Shown one piece after another: positions 43,809-54,546 of a stretch of 64,000 nucleotides of DNA. The DNA comes from Candidatus Falkowbacteria bacterium (GTDB lineage: Bacteria > Patescibacteriota > Patescibacteriia > Patescibacteriales > UBA12075). The notes beneath the pieces were generated by a model, which was not told where the DNA came from, ran no database searches, and saw nothing but the letters and a program-made list of their open reading frames with translations. Location of the stretch: NCBI GenBank assembly GCA_003514005.1, contig DOSJ01000004.1, positions 37,533 to 101,532 on the forward strand. Reading direction: 5' to 3'. How positions within the stretch are numbered: the stretch's first letter is position 1; each line of letters begins with the position of its first letter. Position numbers and translations under genes: made by a program.

Positions 43809-43879
43809 CGGGCTGTAGTATAATGGTAGTACGCGAGGCTGGGGGTCTTGTAGCCCGAGTTCGATTCTCGGCAGCCCGA
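43809..43879 (+). tRNA. tRNA-Pro (anticodon GGG)
   Basis: Hand-folded cloverleaf. Acceptor CGGGCTG/CAGCCCG, D-stem GTAT/GTAC, anticodon stem CGAGG/TCTTG with loop CT-GGG-GG, T-arm CCGAG-TTCGATT-CTCGG, discriminator A. No encoded CCA. Confidence 0.85.
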
Positions 43880-43895
43880 CGTCGTATCCAAATGT

Positions 43896-44077: not shown

Positions 44078-44159
44078 GGGTGCGTGGCGAAACTGGTAGA
44101 CGCATACGCTTCAGGTGCGTACGGAGCAATCTGTGTGGGTTCGAGTCCCACCGCGCCCA
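44078..44159 (+). tRNA. tRNA-Leu (anticodon CAG)
   Basis: Hand-folded type II tRNA. Acceptor GGGTGCG/CGCGCCC, D-arm GCG-AAACTGGTAGA-CGC, anticodon stem TACGC/GCGTA with loop TT-CAG-GT, long variable arm, T-arm GTGGG-TTCGAGT-CCCAC, discriminator A. Confidence 0.9.
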
Positions 44160-44213
44160 CTGATTTTTTGTTCATTTTATTTTTTATAAAAACTATTAAC
44201 AAGGGGGGGCATA

Positions 44214-49908: not shown

Positions 49909-51141
49909 ATGGCAAAAAATTTTTTGGTAGTGTCACCGAGTTTTGTGGAAGAAATGAAAGAAACAAAAGCAAAAATAGACAGAATGGCGGTATTTGCAGA
50001 AATATTTTTAATTCTTGATGATAAGTATGAAATTAATTTGCCACAAGCGGAGATTTTAATAATTTTAGAAAAAAAAGGATTTAACTATTCAATTTCAGTT
50101 ATACGGAATTTTCTAAAAATAATTAGAGAAACAAGAGAATTTTTATTTGATAAGTCAGAAAATAAAATTGCAGATTTTGTGAATTATTTCAATGAAACAG
50201 CTACGAGAAGTGGTTATACAAGATTTGTGAATATTGGAATATCTTGTTTTATTGCGGATAAAATAACTAGCTGGGAGCAAGTTGAAAAACTTATGTCAGG
50301 AAAAAATGACGAAGTTGTCGATATTCCTTCGTTTGAAATCAAGCCAGACGTTGAAAAAAATTTGGCAGAAGAATGTGTTGATAGAGTTTCTGACTTGTTT
50401 AAATCTTTGATAGATGAGTATGATTTATTAAAAAATGAAAATGATTCAATGCATAAGTCAATAAGCTTTTATGAAAATGGATTTAAGAAGCTACAATCGG
50501 AGCACTGCGAATGTCTTGATGAATTAAAAGATTTGAAAAGTGTTGAAGAAATTAATATCGGCTTAATCGAAGAGATGGAAAAATTTAAATTAGAGATAGC
50601 TGGTTTAAAAAAGGAAAAAAGCCAAGACAATAAAACCATTGAATTCTTGAAGGAAACAAAACAGCAATTAGATTCGGAAATTACCAGATTAAAACAAGAG
50701 ATTGAAGAATTAAAAAAAACCGATATACAAAAAGTTTATTCAATGATTACAAATTTGACGGAAAAAGGATTGGAGCGAGGAGGCCAGGCAAAAATTATAG
50801 GGAACGGAAAAGAAAAGTTTCAAAATAGTGATCTTTTGCCAAAAAAATATATACCTGAAGGAAATGATATCGTATATTCAAAATTATTTATTGCTCAATT
50901 CAATGATTTAGACCGGACGGTGGCAAAAAATATTTCAAAAACCATTCGATTAATTTCGGAGAACGGTCTTAATGTTATATCGGCTAGCAACAAGAAAGTA
51001 ATTCAAAAATGTGTTACAGGAGTACCTGATAAATCAATCCAGGTAACAATAAAAAAATACCGGACTATGTGCAGGGTATTTGCTCATGTATTGTATTTTT
51101 ATGATGTGTTCCATCGAAAAAATTCACCATACGCAAGTTAA
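49909..51141 (+). CDS. Coiled-coil protein with RelE/ParE-like C-terminal region (410 aa)
   Basis: Central heptad-rich Glu/Lys region. The last ~95 aa ('FIAQFNDLDRTVAKNISKTIRLI...KKYRTMCRVFAHVLYFYDVFHRKNSPY') resemble the RelE/ParE pattern (YRiiY....v.il.v.HRk..Y). Confidence 0.55.
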   Translation: MAKNFLVVSPSFVEEMKETKAKIDRMAVFAEIFLILDDKYEINLPQAEILIILEKKGFNYSISVIRNFLKIIRETREFLFDKSENKIADFVNYFNETATRSGYTRFVNIGISCFIADKITSWEQVEKLMSGKNDEVVDIPSFEIKPDVEKNLAEECVDRVSDLFKSLIDEYDLLKNENDSMHKSISFYENGFKKLQSEHCECLDELKDLKSVEEINIGLIEEMEKFKLEIAGLKKEKSQDNKTIEFLKETKQQLDSEITRLKQEIEELKKTDIQKVYSMITNLTEKGLERGGQAKIIGNGKEKFQNSDLLPKKYIPEGNDIVYSKLFIAQFNDLDRTVAKNISKTIRLISENGLNVISASNKKVIQKCVTGVPDKSIQVTIKKYRTMCRVFAHVLYFYDVFHRKNSPYAS

Positions 51142-51150
51142 ATAATTTCT

Positions 51151-51184
51151 GGGTTCTGCTAAAAAAAAGCAGAGCCCTTTTTTA
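51151..51184 (+). terminator. Rho-independent terminator
   Basis: GGGTTCTGC-A8-GCAGAGCCC followed by T6. Confidence 0.85.
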
Positions 51185-51212
51185 TTGACAAGAAAAATAA
51201 ATAATATATAAT
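51185..51212 (+). promoter_or_regulatory. Consensus sigma70-type promoter of the glyQS leader
   Basis: TTGACA, 16 nt, then TATAAT. Confidence 0.75.
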
Positions 51213-51218
51213 GAGAAT

Positions 51219-51370
51219 ATAAGCAATTTTGGGAGATTGGCACCCGAAAAAAATTGCTTATCAATCAAGGCGCCCCGGTTGCGATCGGGGAAACTAGATG
51301 GAACCGCGGGAATTACCTCGTTCTAGTACTTAAAAATAATTTTTTAAGTATTGGAACGAGGTCTTTTTTT
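51219..51370 (+). promoter_or_regulatory. Glycine T-box riboswitch leader (minimal Stem I) with intrinsic terminator
   Basis: Stem I AAGCAATTTT..AAAATTGCTT has the apical loop AGAUUGGCA, with the GGC Gly codon followed by A. Stem III is CCCCG-GTTGCGAT-CGGGG. The T-box is AACTAGATGGAACCGCGGG, with UGGA in the bulge. The antiterminator ACTAGA/TCTAGT competes with the terminator ACCTCGTTC...GAACGAGGT + CT7 (51315-51370). It lies upstream of glyQS. Confidence 0.7.
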
Positions 51371-51378
51371 ATAAAGAA

Positions 51379-51522
51379 TACAAATTACAAATTGCTACAA
51401 ATATCACAAATATTAATTAAAAAATTAGTTATAATTAAGACGTTTAAACTAGGTGATTATCTTTGTTAAAAAAAATGTAAACGAAAAGTATTTGTGTAAT
51501 TTATAGCAATTTGTAATTTGTA
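51379..51522. repeat. Imperfect 34-nt inverted repeat of ATTACAA-type heptamers flanking a 76-nt AT-rich spacer
   Basis: TACAAATTACAAATTGCTACAAATATCACAAATA pairs with TATTTGTGTAATTTATAGCAATTTGTAATTTGTA (3 mismatches). The spacer contains GTTATAAT. Confidence 0.85.
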
Positions 51523-51563
51523 ATCTTAAAATAATTTGTAATCTTATAATAATTCAAAAAAAT

Positions 51564-52964
51564 ATGCAAAATCAAACAACAATTGAAAAAATCACATCAC
51601 TTGCAAAACGGCGGGGTTTTGTGTTTCCGTCTTCGGAAATATATGGGGGCTTTGCGGCCGTGTACGATTACGGTCATTATGGCATTTTGTTAAAAAATAA
51701 TTTGGCGGCGGCTTGGTGGAAGCATATGGTGCAGTTGCGTCCGGATGTTGTTGGTTTGGATTCGGCGATATTTATGCATCCGACAACCTGGAAAGCGAGC
51801 GGGCATGTGGACGGCTTTGATGATCCACAGATCGATTGCCGCGATTGTAAAGCGCGCATGCGCGCGGATCATATGCTCGAAGCTTTTGGAATCGACGCGG
51901 ACAAGATGAGTGCGGCAGAAATAAATGAACAGATTGAAAAATTAAAAACAGAGGGCAAGGAATTGAAATGTATTTCCTGCGGGAAAAAGAACTTAACTCC
52001 TGCAAAAAGATTTTCGCTTATGGTAAAGTCCAATCTTGGTTCACCGACCGATGCTTTAAGCGAAGAGAATGTGGTATATTTGCGTCCGGAAACATGTGGT
52101 GGAATTTATTTGAATTATAAAAATACATTGGATTCAACCAGGGTTAAATTGCCGTTTGGTATTGCCCAAGTCGGTAAAGCTTTTCGCAATGAAATAGTCG
52201 CGCGCCAATTTATATTCCGCACGCGCGAATTTGAGCAGATGGAAATGCAATATTTTTTGCATCCATCCGACATGAACCGGAAATACGAGGAATGGAAAGA
52301 AGCGCGTTGGCAGTGGTATTTGGAATATGGCATTAAGGCGGAAAATCTGCGCTGGTACAAGCATATTAAGCTCGCGCATTACGCGGCCGCGGCTTTTGAT
52401 ATCGAATATAACTATACAGCACTTGGCGGATTCAAGGAGATGGAAGGTATTCATCAACGCGGTGATTGGGATTTGTCACAGCATAGTAAATTTTCAGGAC
52501 AGAAATTGGATTATACGGATCCAAAAAGCGGCGAGAAATTTATTCCGCACATCATGGAGACATCAGTTGGTCTCAATCGTATGTTTTTTGCATTTTTGCA
52601 CGAGGCTTATACCGAGGAAGGCGAGGGCGAAGATATGCGCGTTGTATTAAAATTCGACAAACGTTTGGCGCCGGTTAAAATAGCGGTTTTCCCTTTGCTA
52701 AAAAATAAGCCGGAGCTGGTTGCGAAGGCCGAAGAAGTCTTTAAAAATCTGGCAAAAAATTATATGTGCGAGTTTGATGATAACGGCAATATCGGCAAAC
52801 GCTATCGTCGTCAAGACGAGATCGGTACGCCGTATTGCGTTACAATCGATTTTGATACTTTGGAAAAAGATAATTGCGTAACCGTCCGTGATCGGGATAC
52901 TATGCAGCAAGAGCGGGTTAGTTTGGAAAATTTAAGTGTTTATTTTGCAGAAAAATTTGTATAA
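51564..52964 (+). CDS. glyQS: Glycyl-tRNA synthetase (alpha2 dimeric type)
   Basis: The N-terminal 'LAKRRGFVFPSSEIYGGFAAVYDYGHYG' and class II motifs ('FRNEI..R..FIFRTREFEQME', 'GIHQRGDWDL', 'ETSVGLNR') are typical of GlyQS. Confidence 0.9.
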   Translation: MQNQTTIEKITSLAKRRGFVFPSSEIYGGFAAVYDYGHYGILLKNNLAAAWWKHMVQLRPDVVGLDSAIFMHPTTWKASGHVDGFDDPQIDCRDCKARMRADHMLEAFGIDADKMSAAEINEQIEKLKTEGKELKCISCGKKNLTPAKRFSLMVKSNLGSPTDALSEENVVYLRPETCGGIYLNYKNTLDSTRVKLPFGIAQVGKAFRNEIVARQFIFRTREFEQMEMQYFLHPSDMNRKYEEWKEARWQWYLEYGIKAENLRWYKHIKLAHYAAAAFDIEYNYTALGGFKEMEGIHQRGDWDLSQHSKFSGQKLDYTDPKSGEKFIPHIMETSVGLNRMFFAFLHEAYTEEGEGEDMRVVLKFDKRLAPVKIAVFPLLKNKPELVAKAEEVFKNLAKNYMCEFDDNGNIGKRYRRQDEIGTPYCVTIDFDTLEKDNCVTVRDRDTMQQERVSLENLSVYFAEKFV

Positions 52965-53199: not shown

Positions 53200-54546
53200 A
53201 TGGAATTTATAAAAAATAAAAAAGAATTAGGGATTACACGGATGCGAGAGCGGGCGTTGAGTTTTTTGGAGGCCGGTCTTTTTGCGATTGATCCGTTTTC
53301 TTTAATGAAAAAATCTTTGTTGTACAGTGAAAAATTCAATTGTTTAACTGTGCAGAATACGGAATTTAATATTATTAGCGGACGGATTTTTGTTGTGGGC
53401 GGCGGTAAAGCGGCCGGACGGATGGCTGAGGCTTTGGAGGATGTTATCGGTGAAAAAAATATTACCGCGGGTTTTGTTAATGCATTGGAAAAAAACAGCA
53501 AATTGAAAATAATAAAAGTTACCAAGGCTGGACATCCATTGCCGGATAAAAATGGCGTTTTAGGGGTTGAGAAAATGCTTGCATTAAAAGAGGAATATGA
53601 TATTAATAAAAAAGATCTGGTTGTTGTCCTGCTCTCCGGCGGCGGATCAGCGCTTTTGCCTGCGCCTGTTTCCGGCATCAGTTTGGATGATAAGCAGAAA
53701 ACTACAGATATCCTGATTAAATCAGGCGCGAATATCCGCGAGATTAATACTGTACGCAAACATTTGTCGCGGATAAAAGGCGGACGTTTGGCCGAATATT
53801 TCGCGCCGGCCAAAGTCGTTTCATTGATTATTTCCGATGTATTGGATAATGATCCGCAAACAATCGCATCGGGTCCGGGGGCGATTGACAAGACGGTTTA
53901 TCACGATGCTTACGCGGTTTTGGAAAAATACCAGTTAATCCAAAAAGTGCCGACGGCAGTTGAAAATTATTTAAGAAAGTGCGCGCAAGAAAATGTTCGG
54001 GATACGCCCAAAAAACTTCCCAATGCCAGCAGTTTTATTATCGGTTCCAATCTGGAGCTTTTGGATGCGATGACACTGCTTGCTAAAAAGCAGAAAATGA
54101 AACCGCTCGTCATTACTTCGCGCATGTGCCGTGATGTTCTGACCGAGGCCAAGGAATTGGCAACCGATATTATAGCAGGCAAGTACAAAGATTATGATGT
54201 CTTGTTATTTGCCGGTGAAACTTTGATAAACGTTCTTGGGAAAAGCGGTAAAGGTGGACGCAATCAGCATTTTTCCGCTCTATTCATGCCGTATCTAAAA
54301 AACTTTGACAAAGAATGGGTGCTAGCCAGCATCAGCACGGACGGACGGGATTACATCGCCGGCGTTGGTGGCGCTATTATTGATAACAATTCTCTTCATC
54401 AGGCGCAAAGCGCGAATTTGGCATATGAAAAATATTTGAATGATTTTGATGCCTATAATCTTTTAAAAAAATTGAAAAATTCATTAATCAATACCGAAAA
54501 TACCGGAACGAATGTCGGGGATGCAGGCGTATTTATTTTAAAATAA
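53200..54546 (+). CDS. Glycerate 2-kinase / hydroxypyruvate reductase-like (DUF4147 + MOFRL family)
   Basis: 'VVGGGKAAGRMAEAL', 'GHPLPD', 'LLSGGGSALL', 'INTVRKHLSRIKGG', 'ISDVLDNDPQTIASGP' and 'STDGRD'. Confidence 0.8.
   Translation: MEFIKNKKELGITRMRERALSFLEAGLFAIDPFSLMKKSLLYSEKFNCLTVQNTEFNIISGRIFVVGGGKAAGRMAEALEDVIGEKNITAGFVNALEKNSKLKIIKVTKAGHPLPDKNGVLGVEKMLALKEEYDINKKDLVVVLLSGGGSALLPAPVSGISLDDKQKTTDILIKSGANIREINTVRKHLSRIKGGRLAEYFAPAKVVSLIISDVLDNDPQTIASGPGAIDKTVYHDAYAVLEKYQLIQKVPTAVENYLRKCAQENVRDTPKKLPNASSFIIGSNLELLDAMTLLAKKQKMKPLVITSRMCRDVLTEAKELATDIIAGKYKDYDVLLFAGETLINVLGKSGKGGRNQHFSALFMPYLKNFDKEWVLASISTDGRDYIAGVGGAIIDNNSLHQAQSANLAYEKYLNDFDAYNLLKKLKNSLINTENTGTNVGDAGVFILK

Follow-up and report, generated by a model that had tools for sequence, protein, structure and literature searches.

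Described classes of T-box leader

Reviews divide T-box leaders in two: transcriptional ones need a long Stem I that carries a platform, while platform-less ones are translational and need Stem II. The rationale offered is kinetic: a switch that is coupled to RNA polymerase must capture its tRNA fast. The subject of this analysis is a leader that lies upstream of glyS, the gene of a dimeric-type glycine--tRNA ligase (GlyRS), in a 64,000-nt stretch of DNA from a Candidatus Falkowbacteria bacterium (contig DOSJ01000004.1; this whole stretch of 64 kb is called the window below), together with its counterparts in other Patescibacteria. Its sequence points to a T-box transcription attenuator that is specific for glycine and has a minimal domain for tRNA recognition, one that would contact the tRNA only at the anticodon and at the 3' end; we put the probability of this reading at somewhat under four in five.

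The glyQS and glyS leaders of the Bacillus type (Bacillus subtilis, Geobacillus kaustophilus, Oceanobacillus iheyensis; Rfam family RF00230) share much with it: the GGC specifier followed by A, and the UGGA bulge that matches U73 of the tRNA; the lack of Stem II and of the IIA/B pseudoknot; the same discriminator, with its purine string, Stem III, AA, helices A1 and A2 and G·U pair; and a terminator/antiterminator switch that controls the GlyRS gene. They differ in Stem I, which in the Bacillus type is about 85-100 nt long, has a basal kink-turn (K-turn), and bears an AG bulge and a distal loop that constitute the elbow-binding platform. In the Bacillus type the distal platform comes first, and the specifier follows it on the 3' strand of Stem I, in an internal S-turn loop; the Patescibacteria leaders present the codon in an apical loop (in the window at about nt 20 of the transcript) and have none of the Bacillus Stem I motifs. 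Glycine T-boxes are thought to manage without Stem II thanks to the strength of the GGC:GCC duplex (PMC7583486).

The ileS T-boxes of actinobacteria (Sherwood, Grundy & Henkin 2015; structures from Nocardia farcinica and Mycobacterium tuberculosis) have a short or "ultrashort" Stem I; T-boxes of this kind are translational and mostly actinobacterial, and in them Stem II becomes essential (PMC7583486). A preliminary description of the window leader, made by reading the sequence, had associated truncated Stem I with just these translational ileS leaders, in agreement with the literature (PMC7583486). Likenesses to the Patescibacteria leaders are the platform-less Stem I, the same discriminator core and, in the short form, a specifier in the apical loop near the 5' end. 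The differences are equally plain: the ileS leaders are specific for isoleucine, work at the level of translation (they sequester the Shine-Dalgarno sequence) and have a Stem II with an S-turn as well as the IIA/B pseudoknot; the Patescibacteria leaders have a glycine codon, neither Stem II nor a conserved K-turn, and a terminator far from the start codon.

The third comparison is with an engineered RNA, the ΔDTM core of B. subtilis glyQS, from which the platform has been deleted and in which, as is proposed for the leaders considered here, the tRNA is held at two points only, by the specifier and at its 3' end (PMC5951919). It demonstrates that a complex of this kind forms: the on-rate is near normal (k_on is halved), k_off is about 0.03 per second, and the complex lives for tens of seconds, so that only the ultra-stable state is lost (PMC5951919). 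It differs in being an artificial deletion, considered impaired in function, in which the internal specifier loop and the K-turn are still present (PMC5951919), while the Patescibacteria family is natural and under selection.

On comparative reading, then, the family is the actinobacterial apical-loop Stem I joined to the Stem II-less terminator design of Bacillus glyQS, without either of the two auxiliary tRNA-binding devices. No report of T-boxes in the Candidate Phyla Radiation (CPR), Patescibacteria or Parcubacteria was found in the searchable literature, outside which much subscription literature lies, nor is an architecture of this kind described in the TBDB paper or in a 2024 survey of the idiosyncrasies of glycyl T-boxes.

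The glyS leader of the window

The anatomy of the leader was established by direct reading of positions 50900-51800 and by mechanical scans. Its parts, preceded by the terminator of the gene upstream, are these:

51151-51183, plus strand: intrinsic terminator of a 410-aa open reading frame (ORF) upstream (hairpin 51151-51177, then a T-run; GGGUUCUGC/GCAGAGCCC; terminator scan)
51185-51212, plus strand: sigma-70-type promoter TTGACA-16-TATAAT (TTGACA 51185-51190, TATAAT 51207-51212; 12/12 match)
51219-51261, plus strand: Stem I, a single 43-nt hairpin of 15 bp (folding; inverted repeat 12/12 complementary)
51219-51230 with 51250-51261, plus strand: lower helix of Stem I, 12 bp
51231-51233 with 51243-51245, plus strand: upper helix of Stem I, GGG/CCC
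51234-51242, plus strand: apical loop of Stem I, AGAUUGGCA, 9 nt
51239-51242, plus strand: specifier GGC (51239-51241) and conserved purine A (51242), inside the apical loop
51246-51249, plus strand: 3' bulge of Stem I, GAAA
51262-51272, plus strand: single-stranded linker of 11 nt ending in AGGCG (51268-51272), a match to the RRRxG motif that precedes Stem III
51273-51292, plus strand: Stem III (51273-51290), CCCCGGU/AUCGGGG, 7 bp, then the conserved AA (51291-51292)
51292-51310, plus strand: T-box core, AACUAGAUGGAACCGCGGG
51293-51327, plus strand: antiterminator, ACUAGA-UGGAACC-GCGGG-AAUUAC-CUCGU-UCUAGU (Rfam alignment; covariation)
51293-51298 with 51322-51327, plus strand: helix A1, ACUAGA/UCUAGU
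51299-51305, plus strand: T-box bulge UGGAACC, 7 nt, whose UGGA would pair with tRNA 3' UCCA
51306-51310 with 51317-51321, plus strand: helix A2, GCGGG/CUCGU, with the basal wobble G51306·U51321
51315-51370, plus strand: intrinsic terminator, made up of a hairpin of 22 bp (51315-51362) followed by C and U7 (51364-51370); -30.0 kcal/mol

The predicted transcript start, at about 51219, should lie some 20 nt 5' of the specifier codon. Twenty-six nt separate the -10 box from the codon, and the intergenic DNA 5' of Stem I is wholly taken up by the terminator of the upstream ORF and the promoter; a long Stem I cannot fit because the -10 box is too close to the codon. On the other side of Stem I, a linker of 11 nt leaves no room for Stem II or for a IIA/B pseudoknot. 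What there is of Stem I is a stable structure (-12.7 kcal/mol, z = -6.7, with none of 500 flank shuffles equally stable); its 5' strand has no GA motif. The whole leader folds with a z-score of -6.7.

The 5' strand of the terminator consists of the 3' strands of A2 and A1, with an overlap of 13 nt (51315-51327), and because these strands are shared the terminator excludes the antiterminator. When imposed on the sequence, the antiterminator is worth -8.6 kcal/mol; termination is the default outcome because the terminator is so much more stable.

The preliminary description had located most of this, and its reading stands: a consensus promoter, a Stem I of about 40 nt with the specifier in its apical loop, Stem III, the T-box sequence with UGGA and the glycine specifier are all where it placed them, as are the mutually exclusive antiterminator and terminator helices. 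Its statement that platform, AG bulge and Stem II are lacking is borne out by the nearness of promoter to codon and by the shortness of the linker, and the output that it proposed, a transcription terminator, is found in the window and in all 12 leaders of the family described next.

A family of leaders in Patescibacteria

Relatives were sampled by way of the GlyRS protein rather than the leader, which avoids circularity. In a scan of one genome per species the window GlyRS falls among those of Patescibacteria, in keeping with the earlier assignment: 24 of the best 80 loci are from Patescibacteria, and the top species-level match, at 77% identity, is from a metagenome-assembled genome (MAG) of Candidatus Kuenenbacteria. 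A T-box core lies upstream in three of these 24 loci (L003, Nealsonbacteria; L009, Moraniibacteriota; L017). Closer relatives were drawn from contigs encoding ten GlyRS homologues of 74-86% identity (an eleventh, P0001, has too little upstream DNA): eight have the leader (P0002, P0004, P0005, P0007, P0013, P0015, P0048 and P0060) and two lack it (P0097 and P0040). The window's own GlyRS protein is found on 23 contigs, and in the copy examined (L220) the leader is identical.

A MAFFT alignment of four divergent leaders was set aside, its 5' halves being misaligned, and was replaced by a seed of seven simple members and alignment to a covariance model built on that seed. The family model recovers 12 distinct leaders in 778 kb, every one of them ahead of glyS or of a glyS operon, including one that was not in the seed (L219, 74 bits). 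It matches none of the 21 remaining glyS loci of Patescibacteria and none of 11 glyS loci from outside that group, and no other T-box core was found anywhere in the window or the loci. A metagenome scan with the pattern CCGCGGTTCCA-N45-75-WKCCAMT gave no new members among the matches listed, which are chance matches in GC-rich coding DNA and a few canonical T-boxes; a stricter family pattern gave no match on viral contigs. Support for the family comes from twelve distinct sequences; the GlyRS proteins of the eleven other than the window's are 62-86% identical.

Fitted to the covariance model, these 12 sequences have standard pairs in 95.4% of cells, and 13 of 21 pairs have changed on both sides. 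The covariation score is 0.533, as against 0.243 for shuffles, none of which (of 500) scores as high, and sliding the partners by 1-3 columns brings pairing down to 36-53%. Because that alignment was fitted to a model, the count was repeated on a sequence-only MAFFT alignment of seven members, with much the same result: 98.6% paired, eight pairs changed on both sides, slid controls at 55% or less. All seven pairs of Stem III have changed on both sides across the family, and helix A1 comes in the variants ACUAGA/UCUAGU, GCUAGA/UCUAGC, GCCGGA/UCCGGC, CGGG/CCCG and CAGG/CCUG.

The invariant residues of the leader are those that the structural literature marks as functional. UGGA is present in 12 of 12, ACC in 11 (the exception being the L205 insertion) and the basal G·U of A2 in 10 of 11; also conserved are the purine string, AAGGYG, and the AA that follows Stem III. 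The apical loop of the core clade has the consensus AG(A/U)U(U/C)GGC(A/G). Every one of the 12 loops has a glycine codon, GGC in 11 and GGA in L009, followed by a purine in 11. Conservation together with compensatory changes in every helix, Stem I included, indicates selection on the whole sensor. The identification of the window leader as a glycine T-box is upheld on both counts, by its canonical discriminator half and by the covariation over 12 leaders.

Stem I requires separate treatment. Its lower part cannot be aligned in register because bulge sizes vary, and it was accordingly judged sequence by sequence with flank shuffles: the lower helices are unrelated in sequence, yet paired in all members, with 7-19 bp enclosing the loop, and in 11 of the 12 at most 21 of 500 shuffles are equally stable. 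The hairpin measures 22-50 nt across the family, or up to 67 nt with inserts, and direct reading of the leaders gives a linker of about 11-24 nt between Stems I and III, too short for Stem II plus a IIA/B pseudoknot. In the 10 members with an evident promoter 23-50 nt separate the -10 box from the codon, which places the codon at about nt 17-44 of the RNA. Counted from the start of Stem I up to the end of A1, the eight simple members measure 103-120 nt, as compared with 150-234 nt in eight canonical T-boxes that serve as controls below.

A K-turn at the Stem I bulge was considered as a family feature and rejected: the 5' strand has no GA in the window, L216 and L017 have no internal loop, and L003 has no more than a K-turn-like GA/AAGAA arrangement.

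Could the part of the platform and Stem II be played by something else, a protein or extra RNA such as hairpins inserted in Stem I, in what would still be a genuine tRNA-Gly T-box? Three observations invite the idea: 1) in L205, L208, L212 and L219 the 3' side of Stem I contains one or two additional small hairpins; 2) several members have a purine-rich 3' bulge by the upper helix (GAAA, GGAAA, UGAAU); 3) truncated Stem I by itself binds tRNA very weakly (PMC7583486). The extra hairpins are, however, missing from seven of the 12 members, and in L216 and L017 Stem I is a plain, bulge-free hairpin of 7-8 bp. A GA/K-turn motif is, as just noted, not conserved, and glyS is the only neighbour gene of the leader that is conserved across relatives. 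We consider such a helper unlikely.

All 12 leaders end in a terminator (-22 to -32 kcal/mol, followed by U5-7) that overlaps the antiterminator 3' strands, by 9-12 nt in the simple members, whose antiterminators are worth -7.5 to -15 kcal/mol. Sequestration of a Shine-Dalgarno sequence was discarded as an output: in the window the ATG is 193 nt from the terminator, and a seeming adjacency in L216 is put down to the start codon as called. The called GlyRS start of L216 lies 2 nt past the U-run of the terminator (2501-2536 in that locus); comparison with the window protein suggests that the true start is probably the second Met, 11 codons downstream.

One variant of the discriminator should be recorded here. 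In L205/L206/L207 (about 2263-2305 in L205 coordinates) an insert forms two small hairpins between UGGAAUC and CGCGGG, at the usual ACC site, and because of these two hairpins in the bulge the antiterminator becomes a four-way junction. Leaders of this type also have two extra hairpins inside Stem I.

Comparison with the Rfam T-box model

Scanned with Rfam at default settings, the 64-kb window yields two tRNAs only and not the T-box. A permissive scan of 51100-51620 (521 nt) matches RF00230 at 36.4 bits (E = 1.5e-6). The covariance-model check that had been proposed for the leader therefore has a divided outcome: the match is significant, and it falls short of the gathering score of 93 bits. 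The alignment explains why: posterior probability is near 1 throughout Stem III and on through the antiterminator, while the long Stem I of the model is made to fit promoter DNA, at posterior probabilities of 0.2-0.4, and the real Stem I hairpin is laid on the model's Stem II. The score is low because only the 3' half of the leader aligns. Other members of the family score 32-39 bits or go unreported.

How much weight should a sub-threshold score bear? Eight canonical T-boxes with a long Stem I, met by chance in metagenome contigs (L087, L088, L147, L149, L162, L166, L177 and L200), were taken as controls. They score 44-96 bits; one of the eight reaches 93 and the other seven (44-90 bits) do not. 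The 93-bit gathering threshold of Rfam 15 is strict for T-boxes, and since seven of eight ordinary-looking controls fall below it, annotation at that threshold undercounts T-boxes generally. The notion that a score below gathering marks a T-box as special is correspondingly weakened. The window leader scores about half of what ordinary T-boxes do. Judged by sequence alone, the family appears to have every core feature of a T-box that can be looked for in this way apart from an RF00230 gathering score, and to fit neither of the described architectural classes.

Aminoacyl-tRNA synthetase genes are sometimes autoregulated through tRNA-like structures in their leaders, and one may ask whether this leader senses tRNA at all, or is instead an attenuator that resembles a T-box and is worked by a protein (GlyRS acting on its own leader, for example) or by a leader peptide. 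The 3' half of the leader speaks against this by matching the T-box covariance model position by position. On direct reading the 155-nt leader has no plausible leader peptide rich in Gly codons, and the start codon of glyS is 193 nt past the terminator. Autoregulation through tRNA mimicry was rejected on other grounds: the leader does not mimic tRNA-Gly because its loop bears the codon GGC and not an anticodon-like GCC. An attenuator that does not sense tRNA is highly improbable.

Proposed mechanism and the points that weigh against it

The steps that involve tRNA are modelled on the established T-box mechanism (PMC7583486). Transcription would start some 20 nt before a GGC codon that is displayed in the 9-nt loop of a short hairpin. 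Uncharged tRNA-Gly(GCC) would pair its anticodon with the GGC of the loop and its 3' UCCA with UGGA; stacked on the discriminator, it would hold the weak antiterminator together until RNA polymerase has passed the U-run, and glyS would be transcribed. With charged tRNA, the glycyl group would clash with the pocket formed by the G·U pair and Stem III, and the terminator would form. Unlike the transcriptional T-boxes described so far, the leader has no elbow platform, conserved K-turn or Stem II, which would leave the complex with just two contacts. That two contacts should be enough is likely to be owed to the three G-C pairs of GGC:GCC, the strongest of codon-anticodon duplexes.

The pairing in the loop may be more extensive than the codon. 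With E. coli glyV as a generic bacterial reference only (anticodon GCC, U73, anticodon loop UUGCCAA), the loop sequence UUGGCA is complementary to positions 33-38 of tRNA-Gly(GCC), that is, at six positions and not three, and UU directly precedes the codon in 10 of the 12 members, its place being taken by UC in L216 and by GU in L017. The flanking bases of the loop may thus add to codon-anticodon pairing.

A number of facts count against reading the leader as a minimal T-box attenuator, and it is well to have them in one place. 1) The platform is considered essential in transcriptional T-boxes, for kinetic reasons, and truncated Stem I without Stem II binds tRNA barely detectably (PMC7583486); a sensor with two contacts may therefore be kinetically poor. 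2) The minimum-energy fold of the leader without its terminator is not the antiterminator, although a switch that needs tRNA to hold its ON state would be expected to have a non-optimal antiterminator fold. 3) The RF00230 score of the window leader, as already said, is well below gathering. 4) ARAGORN finds no tRNA-Gly gene in the window, in 24 + 9 Patescibacteria loci or in 60 other loci; the tRNA genes of the window are tRNA-Pro(GGG) (43809-43880) and tRNA-Leu(CAG) (44078-44160) only. 5) Two members depart from the pattern: one, L009, reaches 16 bits, with a weak Stem I and U as the base that follows its codon; the other, L205, carries an insert of about 30 nt within the T-box bulge. 6) The leader is absent from 21 of the 24 species-level Patescibacteria loci and from the close relatives L001, L214 and L222; in the relative that is 77% identical a short intergenic region places the promoter directly before the ATG. 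Its absence from most sampled Patescibacteria and from some close relatives makes the leader dispensable. The comparison of orthologous leaders, which the preliminary description had suggested, therefore came out in two parts: the architecture is shared by 11 other genomes, and most of the Patescibacteria sampled are without the element.

Points of this sort would also suit a relic: a decaying T-box whose shortened Stem I no longer recruits tRNA, left behind as a leaky constitutive attenuator, or as a terminator of the upstream gene next to a promoter. The patchy distribution with losses in close relatives fits this, as do the very low Rfam score, the bulge of L205 disrupted by insertions, and the mobile-looking palindromes that gather just downstream. 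The conserved parts do not: the loop AGAUUGGCA, UGGA, ACC, the G·U pair and the purine string are kept across GlyRS proteins 62-86% identical, the compensatory changes extend to Stem I, and a relic would not have retained a glycine codon in every loop. Decay therefore seems very improbable.

There remains the stronger form of the T-box reading, which holds that the leaders are fully functional, selected transcriptional T-boxes that use two RNA contacts, the kissing interaction of the apical loop (possibly extended from 3 to 6 bp) and the one in which the discriminator meets the tRNA 3' end. For this form we find the balance even.

Gene neighbourhood and the 5' untranslated region

The genes around the leader, and the largest structure between the leader and glyS, are as follows:

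49909-51141: ORF upstream of the leader, 410 aa, of no Pfam family, with faint matches of coiled-coil type (SMC-like, E ~1e-4)
51367-51534, plus strand: long hairpin inside the 5' untranslated region (UTR), with 46-nt arms 51367-51412 / 51489-51534; -41.5 kcal/mol, z = -5.7
51564-52964, plus strand: glyS, dimeric-type glycine--tRNA ligase, 466 aa (Pfam tRNA-synt_2b and HGTP_anticodon)

The identity of the regulated gene is secure: the protein scores 600 bits against the NF003211 equivalog, for which the cut-off is 312, and also matches TIGR00389 (glyS_dimeric). A DUF4147/MOFRL gene (glycerate-kinase-like) lies directly 3' of glyS in the window (53200-54546) and in L208, L210 and L216, relatives that also have the leader, so that the gene order is conserved. 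In L017 (6817-7188) a short T-box precedes a 123-aa ORF that overlaps the start of glyS; since this ORF stands between the two, the leader there controls a two-gene operon. A further observation concerns tRNA prediction: in a Rubricoccaceae MAG (L068, 6595-6694, minus strand) ARAGORN calls a tRNA-like gene of 100 nt whose anticodon (cccg) has four bases; the gene could be an artefact of prediction or an unusual tRNA.

In the window 193 nt separate the U-run from the ATG (51564), as the preliminary description had it (about 190 nt); the inverted repeat that it placed at 51379-51522 proves slightly larger, with arms that extend to the coordinates given above. These arms are found nowhere else in the window. 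The hairpin is probably an inserted palindromic element, transcribed but outside the sensor. Non-homologous inserts, palindromic or rich in repeats, occupy the gap between terminator and glyS in L201 (about 2310-2480), L205 (about 2370-2490) and L210 (about 2330-2480). That of L201 has tandem TAGGACGG units and their inverted copy, and that of L205 has GGGACTGTCGCCAAAT and its complement. At the same site L212 (about 2010-2490) and L213 have an ORF with a PDDEXK_3 domain, flanked by a TACAAAT-rich inverted repeat that resembles the arms of the window hairpin (ATTACAAATT...). The palindromes and repeats of the relatives are read as insertions into a permissive site of the 5' UTR, likewise outside the sensor, and the recurrence of the site suggests that a mobile palindromic element, with or without an ORF, targets the 5' UTR of glyS.

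Implications

A natural family that has neither platform nor Stem II and nonetheless ends in a terminator contradicts the two-way division with which this account began, and the contradiction can be put to the test with an RNA of about 155 nt. If sensing by two contacts is indeed how these leaders work, no natural riboswitch that senses tRNA would be smaller than theirs, whose sensor measures about 105 nt, and elbow platform, K-turn and Stem II would all be dispensable for co-transcriptional sensing, at least in the case of glycine. Such a leader would define the minimal RNA that reads both the identity and the charging of a tRNA, and would serve structural studies as well as the engineering of compact tRNA sensors. 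Genome annotation misses these leaders, which curated models score at about a third of the gathering threshold.

The family extends T-boxes to the Patescibacteria, and in doing so bears on their origin: one can think of it as pointing to growth from an ancestor made of a hairpin and a discriminator, or as a product of reduction in small genomes.

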